Assembly: GCA_054600435.1 (NCBI GenBank)
Contig: BAAIJX010000054.1
Coordinates: forward strand, 124,001-160,799
Origin: Neophaeotheca triangularis
Lineage: Eukaryota
Length of the DNA: 36,799 bases
Reading direction: 5' to 3'
Made by a program: the position numbers and the translations under genes. Below the pieces are notes generated by a model, which saw only the letters and a program-made list of their open reading frames with translations, had not been told where the DNA came from and searched no databases. Numbering within the stretch: position 1 is the stretch's first letter; every line of letters begins with the position of its first letter. Below are positions 234 through 31,483 of this stretch, piece by piece.

Positions 234-2279
234 TCAAATCATCAAGATCAAGCCTAGTACCGCAGCCGCTCCAAACACCATGGCGTTGCTTACGCTCTGC
301 GAGCTGCCCGAGTTGCGGTAGTAGACCGCACCCAGATAGCTGCAAGTGACTGTACCGTTGTCACTCCGCTTCCCATAGTCCACTTCCAGCCCGACACCAG
401 AATCAGGACAACCAAACCCCAACTTCGCCGGGCAGCTTTGAACCAGACTATAGCACAAATCCTCACAAGGCAAGACTTCCTTGTATGGCCCAGGTAAGAC
501 TTGGGCGTTGATGATGCCGGCATTGCGCGTACTGTTCGACGCCCGCACCGACCCTCTAGTCTGTCTGAAAGCAGGCGAGCCATCGAGGGACGGCGCGCCT
601 GGCATTGGCGTATAGGGCTCATTCAAATACGTCTCGTCTACCATGGATGTGTTGCTAAGATAGGCCATACCGACATTGCGAGGTTGAAGAAAGTCCATGT
701 TTGCAGAAAAGTCTTCGCAGCGAGGGATCGTCACAGCGCACAGCCATTCCTTGTAGGCCGTGGCGCAGTCTGTGCAGTCCTTGGCCAGGCTGTACTTGGA
801 GTCGTTGGAAGCGTTGCAGGCCACTTGCTGCAAGCTGTAGTTGAAGTTTTGGTACAAGCTCGCTGCGTAGTTGTCGTAGACGGCACCCAAAGCAGCGGTG
901 GAGGCGAAAGTGTTGGGATTGCTGGGAACAGCGTAGGCGACTTCATTGCAAAAAGAGAGGTTGAAGAGGAGACCGCAGTTGCCGTCTCTCTTGGTCATAA
1001 AAGGAATACTCTGCCACACTGTGCCCCCTCCGCCGACGACGCCCGCACCAGAAGCCGTCGAGTTGCCAGTCTTGGCCAAGATTCCGTTGTACGTGCTAGA
1101 ACGATTCAGCCGAGTAATATAGAATTGCTCTTTTGGCTTGTTGCCCAGCCCACGAGAGGTCATGCCCAGCTCTACGTCCGACATGAGACCGAGGTCATCT
1201 TTTTCACCAGCGATGATTTGCGAGTTCATACGCATACCGCAATATGAATGTTCCAGTCCTCGAGTCTTGGTGTAGTTGTTGTTGTTACCAAAGAAGGTAT
1301 AAGGGGGAGCCAGATCCATCCATTCTTTGTATACATCATCCGAGGGATCGGCTTCAGTGAGATTGTTCGTAACCAGCAAAGCAGAGGTTGTGTCGACGTC
1401 TACGAGATGCAGGAACTCACTAGAGTCGAAACCATGGTAGTAGTCAGTTAGCGAGACCGCCAGTTCATAATTCCAGTCTCCTTCGAACTCGTCGGGCAGT
1501 TCTGGCGCGTGGACCGATATGTAAAATTCCTCACTCCTTTCAATGGTGACGTTGGCGAAGCCCCCTTCCAGGGATCTTTCGATTTGATTTCGACTTCGAA
1601 AGTCGCTGCCAGGTCCGGGTCTTCTGTTATCGGAAGAATTGGAAACGTAAAGTGTCAACTGGGGCGGCGGGTCCCTCAGCTCATCATTTGCGCCATTGTA
1701 CCTCGGCTGCAGGCAAGTGTTGATCGAGATGTATACAGTCTGGTCGTTCTGTCTTGCGTGTAGCCTACCGTCGCCCTCTGCACCTTTGTCCCGCTTGCGG
1801 AGCTCCAGGTGATCTGGCGCTTCTATGGAGCGCTTATCCTCGCTTTCGCCGGGTAGACCTTTGGGCTTATCTGCACGTGTGGCAAGGAGCAGGTCCTTCG
1901 AATAGACCCAATAGGTGGTTTCGCCCGCTACAGCGTTCATGTTGTTGGGGGAGTCGTTGTCGTCGATTGCCATAGGTTCATCCCCATCGTCCTGTCTCTT
2001 CGCCTTGTTGTGTCTCTCAGTCCCATTCTCATCTGTCAAAGCAAACGCATCTTCGTCTAGTTCTAATTCTAGTTCGGGCGCAGCCTGCTGCAGCCTATGC
2101 CAGTTGTGGTCTGTACCATCTCTTATGCGCCCACTACCATCGATGGCGGATTCTTGAGCGTACGCAAAAGTTGGGCTCGACAGTGTCCATAGAAAGACGG
2201 CGACAAGCGAGAGAGCTAATAGCGATGCCGCAAGGCGCGATTGAAGGGGCGTCAGCTTGGGAGGGCACTGGCAAAGCAT
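234..2279 (-). CDS. mid1: Stretch-activated Ca2+ channel subunit Mid1 (Cch1 partner), 681 aa, apparently intronless
   Basis: Hydrophobic N-terminus (KLTPLQSRLAASLL...), VYISINTCLQP motif, Cys-rich C-terminal region (NCGLLFNLSFCNEVAYAVP, CTDCATAYKEWLCAVTIPRC, YKEVLPCEDLCYSLVQSCP) typical of fungal Mid1, and a hydrophobic C-terminal tail. Confidence 0.92.
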   Translation of the reverse strand: MLCQCPPKLTPLQSRLAASLLALSLVAVFLWTLSSPTFAYAQESAIDGSGRIRDGTDHNWHRLQQAAPELELELDEDAFALTDENGTERHNKAKRQDDGDEPMAIDDNDSPNNMNAVAGETTYWVYSKDLLLATRADKPKGLPGESEDKRSIEAPDHLELRKRDKGAEGDGRLHARQNDQTVYISINTCLQPRYNGANDELRDPPPQLTLYVSNSSDNRRPGPGSDFRSRNQIERSLEGGFANVTIERSEEFYISVHAPELPDEFEGDWNYELAVSLTDYYHGFDSSEFLHLVDVDTTSALLVTNNLTEADPSDDVYKEWMDLAPPYTFFGNNNNYTKTRGLEHSYCGMRMNSQIIAGEKDDLGLMSDVELGMTSRGLGNKPKEQFYITRLNRSSTYNGILAKTGNSTASGAGVVGGGGTVWQSIPFMTKRDGNCGLLFNLSFCNEVAYAVPSNPNTFASTAALGAVYDNYAASLYQNFNYSLQQVACNASNDSKYSLAKDCTDCATAYKEWLCAVTIPRCEDFSANMDFLQPRNVGMAYLSNTSMVDETYLNEPYTPMPGAPSLDGSPAFRQTRGSVRASNSTRNAGIINAQVLPGPYKEVLPCEDLCYSLVQSCPAKLGFGCPDSGVGLEVDYGKRSDNGTVTCSYLGAVYYRNSGSSQSVSNAMVFGAAAVLGLILMI

Positions 2280-3768
2280 GCTGTCGTGTCAGCGCTCATA
2301 GCGCAGAGGGGGTGCTTGAGGGTTCGTCAAGCGGTTTGACGGCCGGTTAGGGAAAGCAAAGGTGTTGTAGGGGCCCGCGGATGTGTTCTTCTGTTTGGTT
2401 CGTACACGGCGCTATGTTGCAATATATGTGCCCCAAGTATAGAAAGATCACCGAACCTCAAGGTACTGTATGCACATAAGCACGGATAAGGCTGACGACC
2501 GACGGCTGCTCCCGCCGGCTTGTCCCTGCCCCTGAGCCCCCCTTTCCTTTTAGAAACCATACCCAAATAACAACCCATCACAGACTCGATCGTATCATCT
2601 TCAGTAGTAGTGCGAAATTTGCCGATCCGCCATGGCAACGACAAGATTTTCAGCATGTTCACGACTAGGTCTTGGATGGCTGAGAGGTGATTCAGATGGT
2701 TCGAGCGAAGTGGATAACTCTCATTTCTTACATCATCCCTCTCCTTTCATTTTTAGATATTTGTACGGAGGAGGAGGTATCGCTACTTGACTTTAATGCC
2801 GACGGGCCCAAATCGCGCTCTCCTTGAGGAACCAGGATCTCAACGGCCTTTCCGAATATTCTCCCCCGACAGGTCACAGGCCAAATATATTTTACCGGTC
2901 CCTGAACGGACGGCCCGGGCGGCATGTCAAAATTCAATTTGCCGCAGCCGACACCACGCCAACGCCCACAGACCGCGCGTTTGTTAGTACTCAGCTGCAG
3001 TATGAGCGCATGCATATCTGCTGCGATTCTCCCATCCCTCTCGGCACGTAATTAACACCCGTGGGCGGACACACAAGACGAATGAAAGCTCGTCAATTTG
3101 CCGCTGCGATGGCACCCTGCCCACTGATCCTTGTACCATGCTTGGGCCGATCATCCTTTGGCAAGAGTTCCAACTCCACTAATCAGGCCGTGACTGGCTC
3201 CAGCCTCCAGTCAGTGTCCTTATCGAAGAAATCCGCATCGGTTCGTATGTTGAAGCCGAACAGCCGGTTCATTGCCGCGGGCGTAGTCGTACCACTGACA
3301 AAAAGCTTGTCTGATCTTCGCTGCTGCTTCTCTTGTCTTGACGGCGGTGAAGCGAAGGTTTTTCCCCACAAAAGTAATGTTCTTAACATCCTAGCACCTG
3401 TTTCTTTTTCTGTCGGCCTCCCGTGCCTCCCTTTCTTCCTCTGGTACTCTATCCCAGACTATTCGCCTCGAGCTCGCGAAGCCTTTCAAGGTTCCCTTGA
3501 GCTAACGCTTAACGATAATAACCGGGGCTCGACAACCTTGAGCCACAGTAGTACAGACCCGCAATCTCGTGCCCGACGCTATACATTGAAGTCAAGGGTT
3601 GCTGGGGCAGCTTTTGTGGTGTGGCAGGTGACAACATATAACCTGGGTTCTCCCAGCCCCTTAGGCAATTCTGATTACCATTTACTATCATCTCCTTCCC
3701 TCCTTCCACGATTCTCATCTCATTATACCACATGCTGCTTTCTTTGATTTCATAATATCTCTATTAAT

Positions 3769-5936
3769 ATGCACTTAATCTTTAGGCTTGCCGCTTTGGC
3801 AGCTACTGCAACTGCTACAGCGATTCCCGATCGCAAGTTGGAGACCCGCGCAACCTGCAATGTTCGCTTCCAGGAGACTGTGACTACGAGTTGGGGTGAG
3901 GGCGTTTCTGTCATTGGATCTATCCCCGAATTGGGTAACTGGAACACAAACGCTGCGATACCTCTCTCTGCCGATCAGTACACTGAAGACAACCCCCTCT
4001 GGACTGGCTCCGTCGGCGTTGAAGGCGGCACCGACTTTCAATACAAATACATCAAGTTCGGAGCAGATGGAGGTGTGACTTGGGAAGCGGATCCCAACCG
4101 CAGCTATACCGTACCAGCCGGTTGCAGCGACCAAGTCACCAGGAACGATAACTGGCAAAGCACTGGAACTTCCGGCCAAACTGAAACCGAAACCACAACC
4201 TCGACCGGGTCGGCCTCGTCTTGCACCCATGGCCCCAATTCCAGGGGGTGTTGGGATGGGCAACGAAGCATCGATACCGACTTCGACAGCAACTGGCCAA
4301 CTACCGGGAGAACCGTCTACTACAACCTCGACATTACCAACATTACCATGGCACCCGATGGCTTTAGCCGTCAGGTTCTGGCTATCAACGGCCAGTTCCC
4401 TGGCCCAAGAATCGAGGCGAACTGGGGTGACTACATCAGTATCACGGTGACCAACAACATGCCTAACAACGGAACGGACATTCATTTCCACGGCATCCGT
4501 CAATGGCACTCGAACACAGAGGACGGAGTTCCGGGCGTCACATCTTGCCCGATTCCTCCAGGCGGTAGCAGAGTATATTATTGGCAAGCAACGCAATATG
4601 GCACAAGCTGGTACCACAGCCACTTCTCATCCCAATACGGAGACGGCGTAACAGGTCCTATTCTCATCCACGGCCCAGCGACTGCAGACTACGACATCGA
4701 TCTTGGTCCTCTCCCCATGAACGACTGGTACTACCCAACTGTCGCGACAATGGCGTACCGCGCTGAGCACCAGAACTCCGTGCTGCCCCCATCCGCTGAC
4801 AACGTACTCTTGAACGGCAGCATGACGAGCAACTCCGGTGGCTCATACAGCAGGACAACCCTGACGCAAGACAGGAAGCACCGTCTACGCATCATCAACA
4901 TGAGCGTCGACAATCACTTGATTGTCAGCTTGGACGGCCACAACATGCAAGTCATAACTGCAGACTTTGTGCCCATCGAGCCATACACGACAAACAGCAT
5001 CTTCGTCGCCATTGGCCAACGTTACGACGTTATCATCGAAGCCAACCAGACGCCAGGCGCATACTGGTTCCGCGCCGAGGTCCCTGCCTCCAACCAGTGC
5101 GGCCAAAACTGGAACAACGGCAACATCCGTTCCATCTTCTCCTACGAAGGCTTCGAAGGCGACACCCCAAGCAGTACCCAACAAAACTATGCCCAACGCT
5201 GCACCGACGAGCAAGGCCTCGTCCCGCACTGGAACTCCTTTGTGCCCCAGGGCCAGATCGTCCAACCCGAAGAGCTCACCACAGCCATCAACCTGACCAC
5301 CGCCGACGACGGTTCGGTCCGAGTGTACTGGAACATCAACGGCAACTCGCTCGACGTCATGTGGGACCGGCCAACACTCGCCTACGTCAAGGACGGGCAA
5401 AACAGCTTCCCAGACCGCTCCAACCTCATCCACCTCGACGACGCCAACACCTGGACCTACTGGGTGATTCAAGAAACCACGGGCATTGTTGCCGGCCAAG
5501 CGGTGGACGTGAACGTGCCGCACCCGATCCACCTTCACGGCCATGACTTCTACGTCCTCGGCAAGGGCAACGGGCAATTCACGCCCGACTCGGCCAACCA
5601 GCTCAACTATGACAACCCCACTCGCAGGGATTCGGCCATGTTGGACGGTGGCGGCTGGCTGGCGATTGCTTTCCAGACGGACAACCCGGGCGCGTGGGTG
5701 ATGCACTGTCATATCGCGGTAAGTTTTTCAATTGTACTCGTTGAGCATCGTCCATGATTACTAATAGAACTTTACAGTGGCACGCGGACGAAGGGCTCTC
5801 GTTGCAGTTCCTCGAGACGCCGGAGATGATGTCCGAAGTCAACCCTATTCCGCAGGAGTTTGATCAGCTGTGCGATGCGTGGGAGCAATATTTCCCTCAG
5901 CGGTCGGTTTATGACAAGACGGATAGTGGTATCTAG
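3769..5936 (+). CDS. Secreted ascomycete-type laccase/multicopper oxidase (AA1) with N-terminal CBM20 starch-binding domain; exons 3769-5718 and 5778-5936
   Basis: Signal peptide, CBM20 (about aa 30-130), S/T linker, then all four copper motifs: HFHG, WYHSH, HPIHLHGH and HCHIAWH. The last motif is restored by removing intron 5719-5777 (GTAAGT...CTAAT...CAG). The C-terminus DSGI matches the DSG(L/I) plug of ascomycete laccases. Confidence 0.93.
3856..4158 (+). other. CBM20 starch-binding domain within the laccase CDS
   Basis: VRFQETVTTSWGEGVSVIGSIPELGNW...LSADQYT...PLW...FQYKYIK...VTWEADPNRSYTVP...NDNW closely follows the fungal glucoamylase CBM20 pattern (LGxW, YKY, WExDPNR), with flanking cysteines. 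Confidence 0.9.
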
Positions 5937-7301: not shown

Positions 7302-9541
7302 ATGGATTACTTCGACCATGCAAGAGGGACCGGCAACCAAACATCAGAGGACCGTCTTAATGCTCCTCTACCCAACACCCCAGGCCCTAGCACTCCTGGC
7401 GGTAGGAGCGAAAATTGGCCTCTCCCACGCCAGCCCAGCTCTCGCGGGAATTTGCGGCCGTACTCGGGTATGCGAACGCCGTCGAGTATAGGAATTCGAC
7501 GACTCGGTTCCAATACCCCCAGCACTGCGCTACCACCTGCCCAAGCGCAGCAGAATGCCGATGAGGCTGCTGCCGCACGGCGGCGAAGTTCGTCTGCGCC
7601 GCAGAAATACCGCCCATCTTCTGGAACAGATACTGAGCTGGCCCGGATAAGTACGGCAGATCCGCCTATGGGTACTTTGTCTGAGGAACCTGCATATGGA
7701 CAGCAGGGTAGAGGCAGAGGTTACCGAGGCCCCGAAGAGGAATCTGATCCGCCGCAGGAATCTTCTATCAATGTTGACGGACTGCAAGGGGGAGATCGAT
7801 TTTCGGGCGGCGCGGGCGCTATGCACAGTGCAGGCAATGCTGCGCGCTCTAACAGAGGACTTAGGCGCTTCCGGAGCACTATAAACCCGCAGCAGCAGGA
7901 CAGACAAGAGCAGTCCAGGCCTGATACTGGCGAATATGAGGATGATGTCGTAGACCTTTTGGATATTGTTGGTAAGTACTCGCTAAGTTGTAGAGCAGGA
8001 CTGGGCTGAATTACTAACAACGAAAAGACCCCGAGGTGTCGACTCTAGGCACGCTAAACAATGTCCAAAACTCTCTTTTCGTGCCAGATTTGGGTAGCTG
8101 GATCAATCGCAGGCCCACTTACAAACTGACTCAAAGGCCATCCGATATGGATGCCACTCTTAGACAAGGCCAGCGTTCACGCCGAGGTACTGTTGGATCT
8201 ATGCGGCCACGTTCTGGAGCAGATACCTTGTCTAAGCTGGAGGAAGGCGTGGCGACAGATGGAGATGGCACAGGTCTGGATAACCAAGGTCGACGAATCT
8301 CCCTCACTTCCGAGTTACAGAAGGACCATTATGCTGTGCTGCCCCACGGCTGGGATCTGAGCGACTGGACGGCGGAAGAGAGGGCAGAGCTCGACGATCA
8401 CGTACGCCACCAACTCCACTCTCGCCGTGAAGGCTTCAAACGCAGTATGAAGGGTTTCGGCAAGTACTGTTCGAAACCTCTCGGTCTGTTCGTAGTCATC
8501 TACGCCACCCTGGTCACACTGTTCGGTGCCGCATGGGTGTTTGCACTAATCGGTTGGATCTACGTTGGCGACGAACAAGACTACATCATCAACGTGATCG
8601 ACCTGGTGTTGGTGGCGCTCTTCGCCTTGATAGGCGACGGCTTGGCGCCTTTCCGCGCGGTCGATACCTACCACATGTGCTTCATCGCGCACTACCACTA
8701 CCTCACCTGGCGGCTACGGCGGGAGAAAGAGCTCCCGGACCTTCCGGACCAGAATGACTTGCCCTTCCGACGAAGAGCTCGCGAGCAAGACATCCTCAAC
8801 GCCATCGACAAGGGCGAGATCGACGCCGACAGCGTGCTGACGCCGCACCAACAAGAACGCCTCCAGCACCACCAGCTCAAATTCGCCAAAAGCCACACCT
8901 TCTACAAACCCCACGAAACGAGCACGCATTACGCCTACCCCATCAAACTCATGATCGCCGCAGTCGTCCTGCTCGACTGCCACAGTCTGCTGCAGATCGC
9001 TCTCGGAACCGTAACGTGGAGTATCGATTACCGAGTACGCCCGGAAGCACTGACAGCGACGATCCTTTCAGTCTCCATCACGACCAACATTTGCGCGGGT
9101 ATCGTCATCAGTATCGGCGACAAGAAGACCCGCAAGAAGGACGTGTTTGAGCGCATGTTTCGGCAGGCTCTGACCGAGGAGGCGATGAGCCGCATGGAGA
9201 AGGACAAGGAGCGGCAGCAGAGGAAGAGCTCTGATGAGGGTGACGGTGAGGGCGAGGGTCAAGGGGGTGAGAGCGAAGATAGCGCTGGGGGGAGTGGTGG
9301 TGACGGCAACGAGCGGAAGCCAGAGCTGGAGCAACAGCCGAGGAAAAGCATGACAGCTCCGCGCAAGAGCGAGAGTGAGGGGAGGAAGAGCGAGGGCGAG
9401 CGCAAGCGGAGCAAGAGTCTTCCTCGCAAGAGTTTGGACTACACTAGGAGGCGGAGCAAGAGTCTTCCCCGCAAGAGTAGGGAGATGAGGAGGTATCAGC
9501 AGCAGGCTGGTGAGAGCGGAGGGGCGTACGAAGGCACTTGA
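7302..9541 (+). CDS. Fungal integral membrane protein, DUF2985-like; exons 7302-7971 and 8028-9541
   Basis: Intron 7972-8027 (GTAAGT...CTAAC...AAG) joins LLDIV/DPEVSTL in frame. Disordered N-terminus, then hydrophobic segments (PLGLFVVIYATLVTLFGAAWVF; LVALFALIGDGLAPFRAVDTY; KFAKSHTFYKPHET; LLDCHSLLQIALG) recognised as this fungal family. Confidence 0.75.
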
Positions 9542-10696: not shown

Positions 10697-12027
<1,331 letters not shown>

Positions 12028-12689: not shown

Positions 12690-14694
12690 TCAACCCACAT
12701 CCTCGGCCCCATTGACCCTCGCATCATACCTAGCATCGGCGGGCAAGACCTCCCACTCCACCGTCCCGTTGCCTTGTCGATACAGACTCTCCTTTGGCCC
12801 GCGAGTGCGATAATCAGCCGCGAGCGGCTCCGTGCCCGTCGCGACATCGAGATTCCGCAGCACGCGCGTGAAGAGGTCGAGGGAGGTTGCCGGACGGCTT
12901 TTTTTTTCGCGAGGAAGGGTTAGCGGGGATTGCTCTTGTGCTCTCTTTCTTGTTTGGGTCTCTTCCCTTCCGGCGTGGTTTCTGCCTCTCTTTTTGCCTG
13001 TTGTGTTTGTGGCACGGAGATGGAATGGCTGGCTCGAGATGACTTTTTTTTTGGTGGGGGGTGTGGGAGAAGGTTGGGGCTTGACTTGACTTACTAAAAG
13101 GGCACGGCATGCCCGGCTTCGAAGATGCGGGCGAAGGCGAAGTTGCCGGATTGCTTGACTTGGCCATGCACGATGTTGTCCGGGGTGGAGATGTTGGCGT
13201 AGCCGGAGGCATGGTAGCCAGGGGCGCGGGTGTTGGCTGCGACGGCGGCGTTGCCGAGCCAGTTGCAGATGTAGTCTGGCAGGAAAGGGGGGTTGAGCGG
13301 GTTAGCAAGGGCAGGTTGATTGATGAGGGTGGGGCGTTTTGGGGAAGGATGGGCAAGCTCTCACCTGCGTCCCCGGCGTATTCGTAGACGTAGACGCCGG
13401 CTTCGAGCAAACTGGCCACGGCCGCGTAGGTTCCGGCTTCGCGGGCGTCGTCGCCTGTGTTGCGGAAAGCGGCGCTCACGGTGCTGGAGCTGCGCGAGTA
13501 ATTCGTGAAAGCTCCCACGGCGTGCTGCACTTTGGGGGAGTTGAGGTAATCGGTGAAGAAGCTGTAAGGAAAGGGGTCAGGGGTCAGCTGGCGCATGTCG
13601 TACTGACTTCGCTCGGTGATTGGGTTCCAGATGTTTTGGACTTGGGCTATGCAGAAAGCGTCGGCGGCGGCGCAGACGGTGTTGTCGCCGCGCATGTTGC
13701 AATCGATGGCTTGGTCGAGGCAGTTGCCGGGGCCGTACATGTTGTTGTGGAGCATGGCTGTTGTTGACACGTTGTAAGGCGAGTAGTTGTAGGGATTGCC
13801 GGGAGAGACGGTGTAGTCGTAGTAAGAACCGAATTGGACGACTGGATCATACCAGCCATTGCCGATTTGGACGCTGCGCAGGTCGATGTGATGGGCGTCT
13901 AGCTCGCCGCAATCAATTAGCTCGTTCTGCTGTATGATGTATTCGTTGAATATGGGGCCGTAGTGGCCGCCATAGCTTTGGGATGCGAAGTGAAAGCCGT
14001 TGGAGGAGTACTCTGGGAAAGCTCCCATGAATCCCTGGAGTGTCTTCCACATCCCTGGAGCAGCGGCATGGGTCGAGTTGGCCGTGTTGGTTTGGTTTGG
14101 ATAGGAGTAAGTTCCGCAATCCCAGTCTGCGGCAAAATCCGGACATGTAGCGTTGGGTAGTGTGATGATGTTGCTTCCTGTGGGTGGCACATAAGCAGAT
14201 ACGGCCGTGCTGTAGGAGAAGCCGACCTGTGCTGGCTGATCAACGAAAAGCATGTTGCTGCTGTTCGTCCACGAGTAAGGGTTATTGGTAAGGTTGCCAT
14301 CGTAGTCCATTCCACAGGGACCTTGCGCTTCGAAGAGGCCAATCATGCTGCTACTGCCGGGTCCACCATTGATCCAGACGGTGAGAGGGGCGTTTTGGGG
14401 GTCACCATTTCGGGCTTCAAAGAACCACCTGAGCTATCGTCAGCACTTGCTGAGCCAAGCACCACTTGTGGGCGATTAGGCTTACCAGAAGATGTGCTGG
14501 TCTTCGTCGATATCCGAGTAGCCAGAGTAGGACTTGACATTGGGATCGAGCTCGCAGATGCCTTCAGGAACTTGCTTGTACCGTACACCAATACCGGCGT
14601 GACCCTGAGTTTCAATCAAATCCGTGGGAGCTGGAACGAATTGTGCCAAGGCAGTGGCTGCGAGACCCAGGACCCAGATCAAGTGAGTTGCCAT
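12690..14694 (-). CDS. Secreted serine carboxypeptidase, family S10; exons 14694-14486, 14428-13365, 13275-13095, 12897-12690
   Basis: Signal peptide [62 protein letters not shown]; nucleophile [17 protein letters not shown] (Asp); AGHAVPF/Y (His). Three introns with GT donors and branch sites give a continuous frame to TGA at 12690. Confidence 0.88.
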
Positions 14695-15336: not shown

Positions 15337-16656
15337 CTACAACTTAGCAGCAGTAACCTCCTTCTTCGGCCCAGTAAACCCGAACAAATACCCGGCAACC
15401 TTGCGCATCTGAATCTCCTCACTCCCCTCAGTGATCCTATACCTCCGATGATGGCGCCAGATGTGCTCAAACTGCTTATGCCTCGAATACCCCACTCCAC
15501 CATGGACCTGGATAGCGCGATCCGCGGCCTCGGTACACAGACGGTTAGCCCAGTAATTGCACATGGAGACTTTATCGCCGAGCTTGGCCTCGACTTCGAC
15601 ATGGTCCATGCGGTCCATGTCCGAGGCGGTTTTGCGGATGAGCAGACGCAGCATCTCGGCTTGCGTGGCGAGTTCGACCAGCGGGAATTGAATGGCTTGG
15701 TTGGACGCGAGGGGTTTGCCAAAGGGCCGGCGTTGTTTGGCGTAGTTGACGGATTCGTTGATGCAGTAGCAGGCCGCGCCGAGCGAGGAGGCTGGTTGTC
15801 GGATTCGGTTCTCATGGACGAAAGCTTGTGCGACGGCCAGACCTTCGCCTTCGGCGCCCATGATGGTGGAGTTGGGGACTTTGACGTCCTTGAGCGAGAC
15901 GGTGGCGTGGTCGGTCGGCATGTTGAGGGTCCACTCGTAGCTTTCCACGACAATGCCGGGAGTTGACCGCGGGACGACGAAGCAGGTGATGCCCTTGGCT
16001 GAACCGGCGCGGCCAGAGGTACGCGCGAAGATGAAGCAGTGGGTAGCAGCGTGCATGCCCGTCTGCCACATCTTGCCGCCGTTGATGACCCAGCTGCCAT
16101 CCGCCTGCCTGACCCCCGTAGTATCCATAAACGTGGCATCGCTCCCGTGCCCCGGCTCCGTCAAGCCAAAGGTAATTCTCACCTTGCCCTGCAGCCTACC
16201 CCAAATCAACTCCTTCTTCTGTTCCGGCGTGCCAAAATGCTGCACCATGACCACATCCGGCGCATTGGAGACGATGCTATGCTCGTTTTGCAAATCATTA
16301 AAGAGACCCAGACCCTTGCTAGCGAGATGCTCCCTAATAACAGCCATCCACAAATTACTGCCTCTGCCACTCGCCTCATTCTGGCCACCATACTCTTTCG
16401 GCAAGCTGAAGCGCCAGAAACCTGCCTTGTCCGCTAGCCGGTTACACTCGCCCAGCAAGGCCTCCCATTCGGGGCGCGGCAGGCCGCCATTGTCCCAGTC
16501 GGTTCGCGCGTGCTCGCGGCGGTGGTCGAAGAAGCGTTCGTTGTCGTCTTTACGTTGTAAAGGCAGAATCTCCGCTTCGATGAACTTGTCCAGCTGGGCG
16601 AGGTAGTCCACAAGAGCTGGGGGGACGTCGAAGTTCATGCTGGCTTGGTCGGACAT
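15337..16656 (-). CDS. Acyl-CoA dehydrogenase, intronless, with C-terminal peroxisomal targeting signal (AKL)
   Basis: FGLTEPGHGSDA, WVINGGKMW, RPFGKPLASNQAIQF, AIQVHGGVGYS and RITEGSEEIQ are ACAD motifs. The first ATG is at 16656 (the ORF-track start at 16713 is non-ATG). The protein ends ...VTAAKL*. Confidence 0.93.
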   Translation of the reverse strand: MSDQASMNFDVPPALVDYLAQLDKFIEAEILPLQRKDDNERFFDHRREHARTDWDNGGLPRPEWEALLGECNRLADKAGFWRFSLPKEYGGQNEASGRGSNLWMAVIREHLASKGLGLFNDLQNEHSIVSNAPDVVMVQHFGTPEQKKELIWGRLQGKVRITFGLTEPGHGSDATFMDTTGVRQADGSWVINGGKMWQTGMHAATHCFIFARTSGRAGSAKGITCFVVPRSTPGIVVESYEWTLNMPTDHATVSLKDVKVPNSTIMGAEGEGLAVAQAFVHENRIRQPASSLGAACYCINESVNYAKQRRPFGKPLASNQAIQFPLVELATQAEMLRLLIRKTASDMDRMDHVEVEAKLGDKVSMCNYWANRLCTEAADRAIQVHGGVGYSRHKQFEHIWRHHRRYRITEGSEEIQMRKVAGYLFGFTGPKKEVTAAKL

Positions 16657-17526
16657 GGTTTGATATATCTTTCTTGAGGGGTAGAAGGGGAATGAAGGAG
16701 AGCTGTTTAGCAAGTATACAGTATATCGAAGCGGACCTACCGTGTTCGACAGCGCAGCCTCGTTTGTGAGGGCGCTTCTACTATGATATGTATGTGTGCC
16801 ATTGGTGTACTGTGGTCAAGGGGTGAAGCTCGCCCAGAGACGCAACCTCGGGTTTCTGTGAGGAGCACGCGGGGAAGTCGGCTACAGATTGTCACTTGTC
16901 AGATCTCGAAACTTGCCTGTACGTTCTGTTGGAGGTATTCATCGCTTCTTGGATAAAATATGTCTTTGATGTAACGACTCCTCGCGAGGACACTCCATTA
17001 ACTTGGATCGTACCAAGTCGATTTCATACTTGATCCTGCTCTCGAGACTTCACTGCTAAGTGGCCATTGCTGAGGCCTCCGTAGTTGATTCGTCAATCAA
17101 TTTCGACGCTAGCTGAGGAACGCGCCAACAACGCGCTAGCAACATATTATTCCTCCGCCCATTCAAGCAGCACCAATATCTCGACGATTTCTTGTTCAAA
17201 TCACACGAGGTTTTCATTGCAGGTGTCTAGAAGACTTGTAGATGGCTCCTGATGGTCAAGAGGTGGCGATCTCATCTTTGCGGACTGATAATGCTGCTTG
17301 TCGTGCTTCGGATATCTCGTCAGAGTTCGTAAGGTTCATGGGGTATCTAACTGCGCCCACCGTATTGGCCGTCGGTCTCCACCCTTGACGTGGTTTTCGC
17401 AAACATAACCCTTGTTTGGCTCGGCCAGCACCAGCCGCTACACAGTGGGTTCTCCGCTGGGGAGTGTCCATTGGTCAGCACTCGACCTGCTCCCAAGAAC
17501 CCAACCTCGTGTATCAAACCAGCCCT

Positions 17527-19506
17527 CTACGGCTGCCAACCATCAGCATTAAAATCGTCCAAGAATGACAACCCATCATGGTTAATCGGATTATTCGGAT
17601 CCAAGTAAGTGCCAAAAATATCATCCATACCGGTGAACCAATCCCAATTGATATCGAACTCCCCACTGGCCTGCGCACTGCCGCTATTCATGGCGCTGTC
17701 GACCTGCGGAGTCGCACCTTCCACGGTTTGAGGACCTTCGACGGGCACTTCGTGCGGCTCCCCAGTCTCAACGCAATTGAGAGTGAAAGCGAACTGCCGA
17801 TCCGTTTGCGGGGGCTGCGAGAGGAGTCTGGGGTTCTTCTCCAGTTCTGCGAGCACTTTGCGTGCGAGGGTGGCCGTGAGATCGGCGTTCGCCCACGTGC
17901 GGCGGAGAGTTTGGAGGTATCGGGCGCAGGTTTCGAAGTCCCGGCGGGCGCCGGCTTTGCGGTGGGGGAGTTTGTCTTGACGTACGTGCTGGTAGGAGAC
18001 GGAAAGGGCGAGGGAGATGCCGTAGCAGATCACAGGGATTGGGAGGAGGTTTTCGAGACCGGGGCCGTATTCGATTAGGCGGATTAGTTCCATGGTTGAG
18101 AGATTTTGGCGTTCGTAGGAGGGGCTGTTTATGGGGGTGTTGTTGACGTTTCGTCTTCGGGAGGAAATCATTGCTACGCTGAGGTAGTAGATGTGGAGGG
18201 TCGATAGTGTTGGCGCGGATAAGTGCCACGCGTTTGCTTGGTCGACCAGTTCTTCGAAACCTGGGAAGTCGGTCTCCCAGCCTGTGGCAGAGGCTGGACA
18301 GCCTGGTCGGTAGTAGTCGATGGTCTTGTCTAGCATTTCTGCAATGCGTAACCAGACGTCAAAAGCCGGGAAGCCGGATTCTCCGGGTGCGAGGGTAGAA
18401 ATGGCCACATCTCGCTCGTACATCACCACTGGTCTTCCACTGGTAGCGGCATGCAGTCTATCAAGTGTCCAGAGCACCCAGAACAAACGTTTCATTGGTA
18501 CGCCGTCAGCATGTGTACGCGTCCCGTAGTGACCCAAATGCAGCCCCATGGTCTGGCTATAGTGCATGGCCTGAGCCAAATGCAGAGAAGCGTCTTCGCA
18601 GCCATCGGTACCTTCAAGATGAAGCGACAGCAAAGCCAGAGTCCGTATTCGAGTCATCTTGTCCGGCACAGAGGCTGGATTGAGAGCCTGCAAGGCAGAT
18701 AGATAGAGAGTCCTGGCGAACTCCCGAGGCGCAACAGTGGTAGTCGAGCCGCTAAATCGAAGCAGCGATTCCGCACTGCTATCTTTCCCGGCCACAAGAC
18801 AAACAGCATGGACAAGAGCGACCGGCACCGTACGCTCTGCACAGCTCCGGCGAAACTCGTCCTCCTGCAGCAACGGCAGTACGGGATGCACTCGTCGGAA
18901 AAATACATCAATCAGAGCCGCTTCGTCGACGCTATTGAGCAGTCGCGGATACTGGCTTCCCGTAGCCTTGGGATCCTCAAGCGCTCCCACCACACCATCC
19001 CTGGGGACGCCTACGTTGCGCTCTCGCATCAGCGCATCCCACTCACTCCTATCGATCCAGATGCCCTTGGGCATACCGGTTGAGCGATTAGCCGGCGCGT
19101 CCGAACGTTCCAGGAAACGCGCCTCGGGATTTAGGTCGCCAATGAAGCGCTGCGTTTTTGCGTGAGGTTCCCCGGCGGATCGCGACAACGCTTTGAGTTG
19201 GCCTGAGGGAGCTGGCGGTGTGATCCGCTCGTGGCTGTCATCACGTGCGACCTCGTGAGGTTGCGAAGTCGGCTCATTGCCTGTCGTGGTTCTCCTCTTG
19301 GGTCTCGCGGCATCTTCGTCGCCGTCGTCTTCTTCCATGTGCCGGCAGCGTTTCTGACATCCAAGTCAGTGTTGACTACAAGAGCATTGTAAAAGTGGCG
19401 TCTAATCAAGCCCTACCTTGCGTGACCTGCATTTTTCGCAGGCTTTCGCGAGTCTTTTGCGCTTCAGGGCATCTCCAGAGTATTGCGGGACGAAGGTGAG
19501 CTCCAT
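17527..19506 (-). CDS. Fungal-specific transcription factor (Fungal_trans/MHR domain) with a truncated zinc-cluster N-terminus; exons 19506-19417 and 19353-17527
   Basis: Exon 1 MELTFVPQYSGDALKRKRLAKACEKCRSRK, intron GTAGGG...CTGAC...CAG, then KRCRH joined to the 603-aa ORF, which has LIDVFFRRVHPVLPLL, QTMGLH and RLFWVLWTLDRLHAATSGRP. Confidence 0.82.
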
Positions 19507-20395: not shown

Positions 20396-23300
20396 CTACG
20401 GATACCGCCAAGTCTCCCCGCCCATCTGGGGCAACATAGGACCGTAGGGGTTCGCCTGGCCACTGGCATTCATAGAAGCTGCGGGGTTCATAGTCGGCGC
20501 GTTGCCCATGCTTGGCAGCGTCTGCCAAGCGCTACTGTGATGCAGCGGACTGCCCTGCTTGATCATGTTGTTGGGCGTGACGTGGGGATCGGAGAGCGGC
20601 GAGGGCGTAGGTGCCTTAGGGGAGTTGTTCCACATTGGCGCGCTTTCGTAAGGCTGCGAGGGTGGCTGCTGGGAGAAGTTGTTGTGTTGAAAGGAGTTGT
20701 GGAAGGAGTTTGGGCGATAGTTTTGCTGGCCGAGTTCGTGGAGGAGGCGCTGTTGGTTGCTGTTTTGGGCCGACATGCTGGGTTGGCGGGCGAGCTGTTG
20801 TTGGAATTCCGAGGGGGTTTGGTATTGTGCTGTTGGGTACTGAGGGCGAGGTGGTTGGTAGTTAGAAAGAGGCTGGTCAATACTTGGACGTCGGTTTGGT
20901 GCAACATGGCGTTGATATAGTTGAGAAGGTGGCGTCCACTGCTCGCTCGGGCGGCGCTGAGTCCCACTTGCAGAACTTACGGAAGCAGTTGGCGTGTGCG
21001 TCGGTCGCCATTCCTGGCTGTTCCTATCGATTTGTCAGCGAATGCGAACCTCAAATATTGGGTCCAAGGACTTCACATACCTTCGATCCTGATCGGTGGG
21101 CTTGGATCCGACCGAAGAGGTCGTGGCGGGAGTTGGAGGCGCACCCACAGGAGAGTGATGGCTTTGCGATGACGAGGACGGCCTTATACCATTACCTGCC
21201 TGCGAACCAGATTGTGGCAGAGCAGGCGCCATCATCGAGCCGTTACCGCCGCCCACATGTCCCATCATGCCGGGTACTTGAGGGGCGCCATATTGCTGAA
21301 TGACCTGGCTGTTGCGGCGAATGGCTTCCATCTGCTGCTCGGGGGTCTGTTGATTGTGGGGGATCGAGGAACGCCGCTGCTGCATCGACTGCTGACCCTG
21401 TGACTGCCGGCGGACAACTTCGCGGTACTGCGAGTACTCGCCTGGCCAAGCTGCTGGAAGAGTCTTAGTTGAATAGTACTGGTCAAGGGGGAATGCCCGG
21501 AGTTGCGTGCTCTTGCGTGGCTGTTGAGAGCTTTCACGCGTACCTTGCGAGCTGCTAGTAGAGCTCTGCTGCGGCGTCTGTTGCGTACCAGACGGTCGTC
21601 GCCCTGCCTGTGCACCTTGGGTGGTAAAGCTGCGCTGATTTGCAAGTGCTTGCTGGTCAACCGACCAAACAGAGGGTTGTGGTGGGACCGGGGCCTTGGG
21701 CTTGTAGGCGTAGGGCTTCCCAAAGTTATGACTGATTGCAGGGACATTAGTGGCTGCGCTGACCAAGGGTTTAGGTGGGCGACTGGTCTGAGCTGGATGG
21801 ACTGCAGCCAAAGCTTGCCTCTGAGGTGGGTGCTGGAAGGCAGGACGAGGCGCGACACGCTCCATGAAATTGCTCCGAGGAACGTGGACCGTGCCATTCG
21901 GAGTATCTGTGAAGAAGCATTTTGCGTCCGTGGATATCTTGCCAAGATAATAGTAGAGCTGGTCCGGGTCATTGATTCTGACAGAAAACTTCTGTGGGTA
22001 GTACGGGTTAAGACGGTAATCCTTTGGAGGTGTCTCAACGTTGGCGAATTCGGCCCACTTGAAGTCGGGATTGTCGTGGAAGTCTTGCTCCATTGTCGGA
22101 ACACCATCCTGGCGGTTGTCCATGGACAGTAGGTTCTTGTTAAGCCCCTCTGGCATTGCGACAGCTTTGGAGGAGGGCTTGGGGCGCTGGGAGTCATCTG
22201 GGTCCAGGACACATAACCACTTCCAGTCGACTTCCACCCGGTTGCCCTCGGGTATCACGTCGACAAGGACAGTAAGCTCGCTTGGACGATTCTCAACCAC
22301 CACACCAGCATACACCTCGCCACCGAACTGTTGCGCCTGTACAACATCGCCAGGCTGGACCTGCTTGGCGAAATTGCTGATGCGCTTGCTGTTTTCCACA
22401 GATTCGATGCTGAAGTTCTTCGCCATCTTGGGCCTGTGGTACCGACAGCGGAAGTCGTAACCATCCTCGAAGTACTCCGTTCCATCTTCGCCGAATGTTG
22501 GCACTGGACCGCAGTCGATGAGCACACCCGCAGCCAATGCGCAGCTAGCATGATAGGAACGGGTGCACTTTTTGGCAGCGCATTGAAGCTTGCTGCCCCC
22601 GCGTTTCGAGCGGCAAAAGTTGCACCTCAGCTCAAGGCGAGCACGGTCAACGTTAGTGACACCGTGGACCTTGGGCTTGTTTTGGTCGTTCGAGATCCAA
22701 GTCTCCGGAGTGTAAAGAGCGCAAGAGCGATGGGCTTTGCGTCCGTTGTCTGCCGGAAGCAGAGGATCCCAGGAATTGTCATTCGGACACATGATGCAAG
22801 GCTCGCGTGTAGGACCTTTGATGCGGATACGGCGGATCTTTTTCTTCTTCTTTGGTGCTTCCTGCTTTGGCTCTCGCTTGCGCTTCTTGCTCTGTGCCTT
22901 TGAACCTTTGACACTGGCCGGTGGCGAAGGCAGGTTGCCGTCATCTTCCTGGTCCTCTTCATCTTCGTCGTCGGTCTCCTCGTAGTACTCCGGTGTGGGC
23001 TCGCCTCGTAGTCGACGCTCAATATCCGCCACATCCACCCATACATTATCGGCTTCGCAGTTGCATTTCTTCGCAATCCTGCCATACTCCAGCCAAGAAT
23101 CAGTGGCAAAGTTGACAGATTCAGCGCAGTTGTAGCCAAGGTTGTAACCGGAATGGTAGCCATAGGGGAATGTGATCACAAACTCGCCTTCGTAGTGGAC
23201 GAGTTTGTTAACTTTGACGTTGTACTGCTTTTGCAACACGTCTGGGGAGATGAGGTAGGTCTTGTGGCGCAGAAACTGATCGCAATTCTTCGCATCTTGG

Positions 23301-24789
23301 GGCCAAACGCTCTTCATGGCGGCTTCAAACTTCCTGGCGTCTTCCTGAGAAATGCTGTACCATTGCTTCGGAGCACCAAAGTGGATGTAGTTGATGCTGT
23401 AAAGATCGACGTCCTCAAGATGCCACGCAAAGGTCGCTTTCCACATACCCATGTAGAGGTAGGCGGTGTTCACACCGGGAACTTTGGTGCCTAGCACATC
23501 CAACAGATTCTCGAGCTTGGCGACGTTCCAGCTAGTAACAGTATCGTCGAACAAGGAACCAGGCATATCGGCGGCGTACATTGGCTGATTGAAGGCCAAG
23601 CTCCTCCAGTAGTGTGATTCGAGCTCGGCACATCGCTCGGCAGTGAATTCATCCAAACCGTCCATGTGGTAGTCAAAGTCTTCAAAGGCAGCCTCGTCCA
23701 CGTAATCCGCGGCCTCCGACGTATTGTTCAAACGTCTCGATGTGACCGTTTTGGCCTGGCCACCCTTGGGCTGCCTTCCCTTTGGCTTCGGTGCAGCTTT
23801 CGCGGGCTTGGGTGCCGGAGAGGCTGGTGTCGGTGGTGCCTGCTGGGCACGACCGCTGCGCCTCGCCTTCGGTGGATCAGCCTCCTCGGCTAGCTTCTCC
23901 TCGTCTTGCTCAGTAGCTGTGGTTGGCGCACCGCGCTTTGGCCGACCAGGCTTCCTTTTTGGCTTTGACGCCTCTTCACCGTCCTGCGATGCAGCGGAAC
24001 CAGCAGCAGCGCGACCACGGAGCTTCCCTCCTCCTCGAACGACTTTCTCCTGATTGCGCCTGCGCTCGCCACGCTTTGCAGGCGGTTGATGGTCCGTCTT
24101 CTCCGTCAAGTCTTTCCATTCCGGCAGATTGTACGATCTCTGCTTTTCCACGTTCTGTTGTGTGTATGTGCCGTATGCGCCGTTGAACTCCTGTGTGATG
24201 GGGTTCTTGATTTTGATCTTTTTGACGTATTCATCGAGGGCAGGTAGATTCTCGCGCCTGTGAATTCATGTCAGTCGTTGCACGATTGTAACAGAACATT
24301 TGGACTAAGCATACCATTCTTGAGGCGGTACAACCTTGACGATGCCAGCCTTCATGCCATACTTGTCGATCTTGTTGACGAACTTCTTGAAGCTTCGGAA
24401 TTGATCCATAGTCTGCGCAGCCAGGAACGTTAGCATGTACACCCTTGGAAACGTCATGTTCCGTGTATCCCAATGCATCAACATACCGGCTTGAACACAG
24501 GTATCCTGCCACCCTCGTAATAGTGATCCGGCTCAATCTCCTCGCCATCGCTCTCATCGTCCAGATCCAGATCGCTCAAATCGCTTTCCGCACTTTCGTT
24601 CTTCATTCTTTGCTCGTTGTTCATCTCTTCCGAGGTCGGTGGCGTCAGGGCAGAAGCGCCCGGTTTAGTCGCGGTTTCGCTGGAGGGTTCGACGTCGTCG
24701 CGAGGCGGCGACAACATGACCGTGTCTGTTGTATTATTTGTTGAGTCCATGTTGGAAGTCGTGGAGGCGGTGCCGCCGGCGTCTCCCAT
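20396..24789 (-). CDS. kdmA: JmjC histone H3K36/H3K9 demethylase of the KDM4 family (KdmA/Rph1); exons about 24789-24487, 24412-24315, 24257-21081, 21023-20396
   Basis: JmjN (IPVFKP/TMDQFRSFKKFVNKIDKYGMKAGIVKVVPPQEW), JmjC with Fe-binding FAWHLEDVDLYSINY and GYHSGYN, extended PHD-type zinc finger (CIMC...HRSCALY...CNFC...C...C...YHASC), and a long Q/P/S-rich tail. Intron 21080-21024 (GTATGT...CTGAC...TAG) joins the tail ORF ending at 20396. The start could alternatively be the ATG at 24750. Confidence 0.9.
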
Positions 24790-27995: not shown

Positions 27996-28386
27996 TGCGC
28001 TGTGATTCTGAAGGGAACCTGGGCTTTTCTAGGTGGTAGCAATTTGATGGATGAGAAGAGGGGAAGAGTGTGAATACGACCGTTGAAGGTGGGGTTGTAG
28101 GTGAGTGTTGTAGGAAGAGGGAGAGTCGGTAGATGAAAGGTATGGGCGTTTGTGAGCAGCGTGAGGCTTAAGCAACCCTTCAGAAGCATTGGATTGAGCT
28201 TACGGGAGCTCCAGACTTCGGTCCGAGCCCGACACCGAATTCCATCTGATAAGATCTCTGGACCAAGCTCCCAATCTCCACGTACCGTACCGTCATTCTC
28301 AACACTCTCACTTGCTGTTGCTTCCACTTCGAATCTCATGAACAGTACCACCATAATCACCAAACGTGACGTACTCAGCTAGCAAT

Positions 28387-29817
28387 ATGGGGGATTCACA
28401 GAACACGGCGCTGGCTAAGCGCTCGCGCGACGAGTCGATGTTGATGCCGCCACCGCCACCCACGAAACGCATCAAGCGCCCAGCACAAGTCCTGGATGAA
28501 GACATGTACTCCCAAGCCGTATCCGATATCACCCAAAGAGACTATTTCCCCGAGTTGCCGGAGTTGAAATTGCAGAACGAGTTATTGGCGGCACTACACA
28601 GTGGCAACAGAGAACGCAGAAGACAGGCGACCCGGGACCTTATCAACGCAATGACTCCCAGAGCTGGAAGACCGTCTGTTAGTGGCACCGCTTTCACCAC
28701 TCCAAAAGGGAGCAGGTTTGGATCGACTCCTGCAGGCTACCCCCGCTCCGATGCCGACTTTGCGCCAGAAGGGCTGTCAACGAGGCCAAATATCGATGAC
28801 TTATCGCTGGAACGCTTCGTGCAGTTGTTCACCTCGGAGGACAATGAAAGCGTCTATCGTGTGTTCGACAAGCAGAACGCAGAACATTTTCAGAACAATG
28901 CGTTCTACCACACCGGGAATCAGATCCCCTCAAAGCAGCTAGTAGCGTCAAGGGCAGCCGAGCAAAAGATGATCGGAAACGGAGATGGATCGTCCGGCAC
29001 TTTGATCAAGCACTCTAGTTCGCATCCAAACATGGCGCCCCCTCCAAGACCGTCGCAGGATCTCTCCACCAGACCAGCATCCCTTGACAACTTCCCAAAT
29101 ACCCAAGGAGCCAAGAACCATTTCTTCTTCGGGCCTGAAGGTCTCGAAGATCGCATAGTCACAGTTGCACAACAGGCGGAGGAGCGCTCGAAGGCTCCGC
29201 CCAAAGCCATCGATCGGGCCTCTACTCGCTTTCATCCCACGATCGACGCTGCACCAGCTGCACCTTCCAGCCCCACCATGAGCGCAGTCGACGCCGCAAT
29301 CGCAGGCCGACCCAAGCCCACATCATCTGAAGCAGGAAATGGAGGCGAGACACCGCGCGTCAATGGCTACGCATTCGTGGATTCTGAACCCACCCCGCAA
29401 GAGCTAGGGATAGGTATACCCGTAACGGACGAAGAGGCCGACGCTGCAGAAGAGGAAGCAGCCATGAAATTTTTGCCCCCACTCGACGACTCCGGTCCGA
29501 ACCCTTTCAAGATCAACAACCGCGGCAAACGTGATGAGACTCTCGGTAGGGTTGTGGAGAAGATCGATGCGGGCAAGAGGGAGAGCGGGAAGGGAGGGAG
29601 ATTGGCGCAATTGCAGAGTCTGGGGATCACGCCCGGTGGGAAGACGCCCACGCCGAGTTTTGCGAGCGCGAGAGGAATGGTGAAAGGGAAGGGTTTGACG
29701 CCTGCAGCAAGAAGTTTGGCGGAGAGGATAGGAACGCCGAGGAAGGGGAGCAATATGGCTGTGTTCGGCGACAAGAAGAAGCAGGGAGGATGGACTCCTA
29801 CTCCGCGCAGGAAGTAG
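28387..29817 (+). CDS. Nuclear splicing factor ESS2/DGCR14 (Es2 family), intronless
   Basis: LMPPPPPTKRIKRPAQVLDEDMY...I.QRDYFP.L, LSLERF...FTSEDNES, ETPRVNGYAFVD, NPFKI and LTPAARSL are Es2-family hallmarks. The first ATG is at 28387. Confidence 0.85.
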   Translation: MGDSQNTALAKRSRDESMLMPPPPPTKRIKRPAQVLDEDMYSQAVSDITQRDYFPELPELKLQNELLAALHSGNRERRRQATRDLINAMTPRAGRPSVSGTAFTTPKGSRFGSTPAGYPRSDADFAPEGLSTRPNIDDLSLERFVQLFTSEDNESVYRVFDKQNAEHFQNNAFYHTGNQIPSKQLVASRAAEQKMIGNGDGSSGTLIKHSSSHPNMAPPPRPSQDLSTRPASLDNFPNTQGAKNHFFFGPEGLEDRIVTVAQQAEERSKAPPKAIDRASTRFHPTIDAAPAAPSSPTMSAVDAAIAGRPKPTSSEAGNGGETPRVNGYAFVDSEPTPQELGIGIPVTDEEADAAEEEAAMKFLPPLDDSGPNPFKINNRGKRDETLGRVVEKIDAGKRESGKGGRLAQLQSLGITPGGKTPTPSFASARGMVKGKGLTPAARSLAERIGTPRKGSNMAVFGDKKKQGGWTPTPRRK

Positions 29818-30483: not shown

Positions 30484-30904
30484 TTTCTTTTTGAATTTTT
30501 TTGTCTGTGTTGCATGCAGTACTGGCTAAAGATGTAGACCGAATACCTTAGCTTTCATGTTTACCTGTAGACAATAATCGCTAGTGACGCTACATAATCT
30601 TGCGTGAATTCTTTTGGTTGTCCGCCGCTTGCCAGCACCAACAGAACATCATTACCTTAGTATACATGTGCTCTGAACTAGTTATCATTTCCGCTACCTG
30701 CAAAGTCAAGCTCGCGAAGCTACAGTACAGTACTCTTTTTCTAAACACCTGAACATACGGACCCTGTCACATCGCCTTCCGAGTCCACCAATACTAAACA
30801 CACGATCAACACCAAACCCTCCAGCAAATCCTTTTCAAACTAGCACCAAGGACAAAGTCCACCGAGCGCAGCCCCAAAACCCACCAAAAGCACCAACCTC
30901 AAGC

Positions 30905-31483
30905 ATGACCACCGACATCTCCCTCCCCAACGCCACAACAAACACAACCCAAACCCCAACACCCGCGACCAACCAAGAACCCACCCCAAACCCGTCCAAC
31001 TCTCAAACCAACAAACGACAAAACCCGAACCCGGCCATCAACAAACCCCAACGCCAACGCCAACACGCAAGTCAAAACCAAAACCAAAACCAAAACCAAA
31101 ACCAACCCCAACCCCAAAAAACCCTCCGCAACCCCCCCTTCACCTACCTAAACCTCCAATACCTGCGCCCCACCACCACTACCACAACCACCACGACCCA
31201 ACCCCCAAACCCCCACCTCGACGCCCTAACCACCCACCTCACCCTCCAAACCGCTCTAACCCGTTTCCTAGGCCTCCACGGCTCGGCAATAGCCGTGGAC
31301 ATTTTGGCGCTCGAAGCGACGCGGGGCGAGGTCTGGGTCAGAGTGGGAGCGATGGACCGGGGGGCTTTTGTAGCGGCGGTGGGGGGCTGGGTTGGGAAGA
31401 GCGGGGAGGGGTGGCGGGTTAAGGGGTGGGAATCTTGGGGGGTTGGGGGGGCTGGGGAGGGCGGGCGGGGGTTGTTTGATTGA
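30905..31483 (+). CDS. pop8: RNase P/MRP subunit Pop8-like protein with a low-complexity N-terminus
   Basis: TLRNPPFTYLNLQ...LDALTTHLTLQTALTRFLGLHGSAIAVDIL...VWVRV...DRGAFVAAVGGW...WRVKG matches the Pezizomycotina Pop8 pattern (recalled, not searched). Confidence 0.75.
   Translation: MTTDISLPNATTNTTQTPTPATNQEPTPNPSNSQTNKRQNPNPAINKPQRQRQHASQNQNQNQNQNQPQPQKTLRNPPFTYLNLQYLRPTTTTTTTTTQPPNPHLDALTTHLTLQTALTRFLGLHGSAIAVDILALEATRGEVWVRVGAMDRGAFVAAVGGWVGKSGEGWRVKGWESWGVGGAGEGGRGLFD
31073..31102 (+). repeat. (CAAAAC)5 coding hexamer repeat encoding (QN)5 in pop8
   Basis: Five perfect CAAAAC units read directly from the sequence. Confidence 0.9.

Follow-up and report, generated by a model that had tools for sequence, protein, structure and literature searches.

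A further CBM20-laccase of the ZtrLac1A type in the saprobic black yeast Neophaeotheca triangularis

Results

Organization of the gene

The window analyzed here is a 36,799-nt stretch of the genome of Neophaeotheca triangularis, a saprobic, halotolerant black yeast of the order Neophaeothecales in the Dothideomycetes (PMC7426231). An open frame on the plus strand starts with the ATG at 3769 and runs to 5757, and the splice signals define a two-exon gene. The encoded protein consists of a signal-like N-terminus, a CBM20 module, a disordered Ser/Thr linker, and a three-domain ascomycete laccase, in that order. The features of the gene are as follows.

3769..5936, plus strand: whole gene, CBM20-laccase of 702 aa in two exons (3769-5718 and 5778-5936), from the frame and splice signals
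3769..3822, plus strand: signal-peptide-like N-terminus, aa 1-18, MHLIFRLAALAATATATA, read from the letters of the sequence, with a putative cleavage point; pLDDT <50 for aa 1-25
3823..3849, plus strand: short Arg-ended segment IPDRKLETR, aa 19-27, a possible pro-segment by comparison with orthologue N-termini; the site is monobasic, not Kex2-type
3853..4134, plus strand: CBM20 starch-binding module, Pfam aa 29-122 (PF00686, E 2.4e-32); alignment to solved structures gives aa 26-131, to nt 4161
4162..4221, plus strand: Ser/Thr/Gly-rich linker, aa 132-151, from the sequence; pLDDT <50 at aa 133-149
4228..5718, plus strand: laccase catalytic module, exon 1 part, aa 154-650 (Pfam; Cu-oxidase_3 at nt 4333-4677, Cu-oxidase at 4711-5151, Cu-oxidase_2 from 5380)
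4483..4491, plus strand: copper motif 1, H239-F-H241, by alignment; both His invariant in orthologues
4615..4623, plus strand: copper motif 2, H283-S-H285, by alignment and orthologue conservation
5521..5538, plus strand: copper motif 3, H585-P-I-H588-L-H590, by alignment and orthologue conservation
5704..5718, plus strand: first part of copper motif 4, H646-C647-H648-I-A, at the end of exon 1, by alignment and orthologue conservation
5719..5777, plus strand: intron of 59 nt, GTAAGT...ACTAAT...CAG, with GTAAGT at 5719 and CAG ending at 5777; its removal gives the deposited protein exactly
5778..5936, plus strand: exon 2, with W651-H652 (T1 ligand), axial L657 (nt 5796-5798), DSGI (nt 5922-5933), and the stop TAG at 5934-5936, from translation at 5778 (WHADEGL...DSGI)

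The intron is the only one in the gene and interrupts the last copper motif (HCHIA/WHADEGL, the slash marking its position). The spliced 702-aa product is 100% identical to P0002, the 'hypothetical protein MBLNU230_g6445t1' of N. triangularis. Pfam places the CBM20 and the first oxidase domain within the single unbroken exon 1. The original prediction of one gene encoding CBM20, linker, and laccase was right in coordinates and description, as judged by the single exon for both modules, the Pfam matches, the copper motifs, the DSGI terminus, and the identity to P0002. It had also held that no intron lies between the CBM20 and the oxidase and that these are not merged genes; the unbroken exon bears this out, as do 54 of the best 120 homologues with the same module order. 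One marine metatranscriptome run, which contained 7% of the sampled words, gave the RNA match, a 261-nt contig that aligns at 5273-5533 with one mismatch, inside the oxidase part. The alignment of this run also placed 34 nt of another, unrelated contig.

In 24 of 27 orthologues, by visual count, the signal peptide is followed by an Arg-ended segment that precedes the first module. Fifteen of these segments end in 'RQ', another 8 end in L-[EA]-x-R, and eight are dibasic (KR or RR); the window protein has LETR. The pattern suggests that pro-segment processing is conserved and that Gln would be the new N-terminus in many orthologues. The window protein is probably secreted, and its pro-segment may be cleaved.

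The CBM20 module

The module scores 111 bits against the CBM_20 profile PF00686, for which the cutoff is 23.3, and covers profile positions 1-94 of 97. It aligns with the corresponding modules of the glucoamylases from H. jecorina (2VN4, E 1.6e-29) and A. niger (starch-binding domain 1AC0, E 4e-27). The A. niger module comprises residues 509-616 and has two binding sites, site 1 formed by Trp543 and Trp590 and site 2 by Tyr527 and Tyr556 (PMC4965820). In the alignment, Trp543/Trp590 correspond to W58/W105 of the window protein and Tyr527/Tyr556 correspond to W42/Y71. The starch-site aromatics of both sites are thus present, with one swap at W42 for Tyr527. W58, Y71, W78, K93, and W105 are invariant among 27 full-length orthologues. 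Starch-binding site residues were also sought in PMC10343422, which gave no match.

The laccase module

Residues 154-702 match residues 5-559 of the M. albomyces laccase 1GW0 end to end (E 1.8e-145). The exon 1 part contains the three cupredoxin domains in the expected order: Cu-oxidase_3 at aa 189-303 (E 3.4e-40), Cu-oxidase at 315-461 (E 7.4e-36), and Cu-oxidase_2 at 538-649 (E 6.3e-33). All ten His ligands and the one Cys ligand (H239, H241, H283, H285, H585, H588, H590, H646, C647, H648, and H652) are present, and all 11 are invariant in the 27 full-length orthologues. The copper motifs, the axial Leu, and the DSGI tail of the original prediction are borne out, with the adjustment that copper motif 1 is HFH, which is rarer than HWH. 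A rough count that takes the first H-x-H-G of each protein finds HFHG in 4/36 rows of the CBM20 clade described below and in 4/62 others.

The axial residue of the window protein is L657. The 28 CBM20-laccase clade rows that reach this position have Leu in 15 cases and Phe in 13, and the other 8 models stop at the last intron. The C-termini of 28 complete orthologues read DSGI in 23, DSGV in 4, and DGGI in 1, so that DSG[IV] is found in 27/28. In the alignment, the DSGI at the very end of the window protein faces DSGL, the mature C-terminus of 1GW0.

An AlphaFold2 model built from 27 orthologues has a mean pLDDT of 72.9 and a pTM of 0.70 and is informative for each module, not for contacts between modules. 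The blocks of the CBM20 have pLDDT values of 76-90, aa 133-149 fall below 50, and the oxidase is folded. The window protein is predicted by this model to be a tethered two-module enzyme.

Distribution and descent of the fusion

A homologue search found 2316 proteins at E up to 0.001 among 7998 scored candidates, and the best 120 were listed. PF00686 occurs in 54 of these best 120 of the 2316 homologues, and phmmer with the window CBM20 finds the same 54. The CBM20 of these 54 starts at residue 3-150 and always precedes the oxidase. Among the matches listed, the named carriers all belong to Capnodiales s. lat. and include Dothistroma, Cercospora, Fulvia, Septoria, Ramularia, Zymoseptoria, Pseudocercospora, Zasmidium, Teratosphaeria, Baudoinia, Hortaea, Salinomyces, Friedmanniomyces, Elasticomyces, Recurvomyces, Meristemomyces, Piedraia, Cryoendolithus, Polychaeton, and Peltaster. 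Friedmanniomyces, Cryoendolithus, Elasticomyces, Recurvomyces, Meristemomyces, Hortaea, Salinomyces, and Baudoinia are rock-inhabiting or halophilic black fungi that are not known to have a starch-bearing host.

The catalytic-domain tree was built from 98 rows after 22 with <480 aligned residues were omitted (18 CBM20-bearing fragments and 4 others). FastTree places all 36 CBM20 rows in one clade of 38 with a support of 100. A quick IQ-TREE analysis of 58 rows chosen by hand (the 38 clade rows, 12 sister rows, and 8 outgroup rows) gives the same clade with an SH-aLRT of 100. The window protein and P0003, which is 78% identical to it, are sister to the other 36 clade rows with supports of 95 (FastTree) and 96 (IQ-TREE quick); within the CBM20-laccase clade, the window protein occupies the earliest branch. 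Two clade rows have no CBM20. One of them, P0066, is a fragment beginning within the oxidase; the other, P0045, has its own signal peptide directly before the catalytic module and is a true secondary loss of the CBM20.

Neophaeotheca belongs with the earliest-diverging lineages of Capnodiales s. lat., which are saprobic (PMC7426231), and the gene tree therefore fits a single early fusion that was then inherited vertically. The invariance of the site residues and copper ligands in the 27 orthologues argues for retained function of both modules.

Variants of the architecture occur within the family. An extra Cys-rich module of ~100 aa lies between the pro-segment and the CBM20 in the Teratosphaeriaceae-type orthologues P0008, P0012, P0013, P0018, P0019, P0023, P0025, P0027, and P0028, in which the CBM20 begins at residue 100-150. 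Pfam gives a sub-threshold PAN_1/PAN_4 match to this module in P0012 (20.7 bits against a cutoff of 21.4) and none in P0013 or P0019. These orthologues may be three-module PAN-like-CBM20-laccases. P0004 and P0005 have two tandem CBM20 modules before the laccase.

Origin of the CBM20

The search for a donor of the CBM20 returned 10 proteins when word-based and 1607 proteins at E up to 0.001 when exhaustive, and 40 of the 150 CBM20 matches listed were scanned with Pfam. Among the matches listed, the nearest non-laccase CBM20s are C-terminal modules of fungal GH13 and GH15 enzymes with 49-59% identity. The best match of the exhaustive search is P0128, a 2740-aa protein with 12 CBM20 repeats and an N-terminal PAN-like region, which ranks first because the scores of its repeats sum. 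A CBM20 tree of 84 modules and 106 columns lacks resolution, with the laccase modules intermingled with GH13 and GH15 modules, and the donor can therefore be named only as a 'fungal amylolytic-type CBM20'. The original prediction had looked to separate phylogenies of the two domains for the donor; the catalytic tree gives a single clade, and the CBM20 tree fails to name one.

Genomic neighborhood

The window contains 71 open frames of at least 130 aa, and 20 of these, taken from along its whole length, were scanned with Pfam. Ten matched a family and ten matched none. The ten matches are listed here.

234-2288, minus strand: Mid1 calcium-channel component (Pfam)
8018-9541, plus strand: DUF2985 (Pfam)
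11065-11772, plus strand: GAPDH (Pfam)
12814-14433, minus strand: serine carboxypeptidase S10 (Pfam)
15337-16815, minus strand: acyl-CoA dehydrogenase (Pfam)
17527-19365, minus strand: fungal transcription-factor domain (Pfam)
21035-24265, minus strand: JmjC/PHD demethylase (Pfam)
28357-29817, plus strand: Es2 (Pfam)
30677-31483, plus strand: Pop8 (Pfam)
31941-34451, minus strand: Set2 (Pfam)

GH13, GH15, AA13, and other amylolytic or pigment-pathway genes were absent by Pfam among the 20 frames scanned in the 36.8 kb. By these family assignments, the neighbors are housekeeping genes and not a starch or pigment cluster. The motif CGGN8MGG, which we take to be the AmyR-type consensus, has 48 copies in the window, where 47.2 are expected; three of them lie upstream of the gene, and there is no excess.

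Discussion

Proposed function

We consider it very probable that the window protein is a secreted two-module starch-binding laccase, the N. triangularis orthologue of ZtrLac1A, and that it acts alike. ZtrLac1A of Zymoseptoria tritici (XP_003852363), a laccase of the AA1_3 type, was presented as 'the first modular laccase' to carry a CBM20 (Haddad Momeni et al., BMC Biotechnol 2019; PMC6700816). It was expressed as one active protein and purified via β-cyclodextrin-Sepharose, binds β-cyclodextrin (β-CD) with a Kd of 32.6 μM, and oxidizes ABTS with a kcat of 14 s-1; it has almost no activity on 2,6-DMP and none on syringaldazine (PMC6700816). By analogy, the window protein would bind β-CD and oxidize ABTS as ZtrLac1A does. 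An oxidase aimed at starch-type α-glucan, as originally predicted, is what the binding and oxidation data for this orthologue point to (PMC6700816).

In the proposed mechanism, the N-terminal CBM20 would hold the enzyme on α-1,4-glucan, such as starch granules, amylose-like helices, or cyclodextrins, through its two aromatic platforms, and a flexible, probably O-glycosylated Ser/Thr linker would tether the AA1_3-type three-domain laccase. The T1 copper, with H585, C647, and H652 as ligands and L657 as the non-ligating axial residue, would take single electrons from small aromatics or mediators. The Cys-His path would carry these electrons on to the trinuclear cluster for the reduction of O2 to water, and the C-terminal DSGI would plug the oxygen/water channel. 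Our best guess is that the natural substrates are small redox-active molecules, such as phenolics, at the surface of the starch-bearing plant or algal debris on which the saprobe feeds.

The CBM20 could instead anchor the laccase to the fungus's own α-glucan (wall or capsule glucan, or a glycogen-like or pullulan-like matrix), so that melanin or another pigment is polymerized in place. The fusion is kept with intact site residues in genera of rock- and salt-dwelling black fungi, which would suit such a role. The earliest branch with the fusion likewise belongs to a lineage of saprobes, not pathogens (PMC7426231). The CBM20, however, is of the glucoamylase/α-amylase type with both classical starch sites, no pigment-pathway gene was found nearby among the 20 window frames scanned, and such fungi often accompany algae or plant debris, which are sources of starch. 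ZtrLac1A, moreover, hardly oxidizes the phenolics 2,6-DMP and syringaldazine (PMC6700816), and anchoring to the fungus's own glucan is improbable on this evidence. A role in oxidative starch breakdown is very improbable. Here the granule-held enzyme would cycle phenolic/quinone mediators that pass electrons to starch-active AA13 LPMOs, or would loosen the granule for amylases in another way. α-Amylases and oxidoreductases are both up-regulated late in Dothistroma infection (PMC6700816), and a 2026 review that restates the CBM20-laccase findings proposes synergy with amylolytic enzymes (PMC13153316), but a laccase uses up reductant and does not supply it, and AA13, GH13, and GH15 are absent among the window frames scanned.

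The chance that the fusion is an artefact, through the merging of two adjacent genes into one model, or that the gene is dead, is negligible. The RNA match is confined to 5273-5533 and touches neither the module junction nor the intron, which leaves room for such a doubt. Against it stand the single unbroken exon that holds both modules, the same order in 54 of the best 120 homologues, and functional residues that are invariant in 27 orthologues, together with the expression of the orthologue ZtrLac1A as one active protein (PMC6700816).

Significance

The window gene adds one more, unexceptional member to an enzyme type that is already published and characterized. The original prediction knew of no biochemical characterization, and ZtrLac1A, which has the same architecture, was characterized in 2019 (PMC6700816). 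The original prediction had named a common, already characterized architecture among the outcomes that would refute it; 54 of the best 120 homologues carry an N-terminal CBM20, and Table S1 of that study lists ZtrLac1A and bimodular homologues in Zymoseptoria, Sphaerulina, Pseudocercospora, Mycosphaerella, Dothistroma, and Baudoinia (PMC6700816). The claim of novelty fails because ZtrLac1A was described in 2019 and the architecture is common. As a discovery the gene carries little weight: its product was already deposited, and the architecture, the binding of a starch mimic, and the laccase activity were reported in 2019 and covered again by a review in 2026. The near-even split between Leu and Phe at the axial position (15 versus 13) offers natural variants for redox-tuning studies.

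The fusion predates plant pathogenicity, because the earliest branch is saprobic and many homologues come from non-pathogenic genera. The framing as a pathogen effector on chloroplast starch is therefore too narrow, and it fits poorly with the N. triangularis saprobe and with the clade's fungi of rock and salt. That framing is the one given in the literature, where CBM20-laccases are presented as acting on host chloroplast starch in infected leaves. A full-text search of the available literature found CBM20-laccases discussed only in PMC6700816 and PMC13153316, and it found no paper stating that the fusion predates pathogenicity or persists in non-pathogenic black fungi; the point that it predates pathogenicity may be new. 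It is possible, although we regard it as rather unlikely, that the fusion arose once in a saprobic ancestor of Capnodiales s. lat. and has been selected not only in pathogens but also in rock-inhabiting, halophilic, and indoor black fungi for a core role that is common to all these lifestyles and is not the attack on chloroplast starch. If so, the shared role could be, for example, laccase-driven cross-linking of pigment or wall material on an α-glucan matrix made by the fungus itself, or the scavenging of algal or plant starch debris.

Comparison with known systems

The CBM20 of the window protein belongs to the same Pfam family as those of fungal GH15 and GH13 enzymes and keeps both starch sites, at 49-59% identity. 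It is N-terminal, whereas the CBM20 is C-terminal in 7/7 GH15 and 11/11 GH13 representatives scanned. Its partner is an oxidase, in contrast to the hydrolase of glucoamylases and α-amylases, and Trp replaces the site 2 Tyr527.

The laccase of Melanocarpus albomyces (1GW0), the most thoroughly studied structure of an ascomycete laccase, shares the copper motifs, the axial Leu, and the DSGx plug with the window protein but has no CBM. The M. albomyces gene encodes a C-terminal extension that is removed after DSGL, whereas the window frame stops directly after DSGI and encodes no such extension. Asp381 of the window protein faces a carboxylate of the M. albomyces enzyme that we take to be Glu235.

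The closest comparison is with ZtrLac1A. The window protein is 54% identical (396/728) over its full length to P0031, a protein from another Z. tritici strain that, like ZtrLac1A, is 723 aa long. The window protein and ZtrLac1A have in common the signal, the pro-segment, the CBM20, the Ser/Thr linker, and a laccase ending in DSG[IV], and they belong to the same clade; the order CBM20-linker-catalytic module of ZtrLac1A is drawn in supplement Fig. S3a (PMC6700816). W58, Y71, W78, K93, W105, and the copper ligands are the same in both proteins. The axial residue is Leu in the window protein and Phe in ZtrLac1A (PMC6700816), copper motif 1 is HFH in place of HWH, and site 2 has Trp in place of Tyr527, unlike ZtrLac1A. 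Because these three positions differ, the redox potential and substrate range of the window protein may differ from those of ZtrLac1A. The pro-segment has 9 aa compared with about 25 in ZtrLac1A, and the linker has about 20 aa compared with 12. The hosts also differ, the window protein coming from a saprobe of the Neophaeothecales and ZtrLac1A from a plant pathogen of the Mycosphaerellales.
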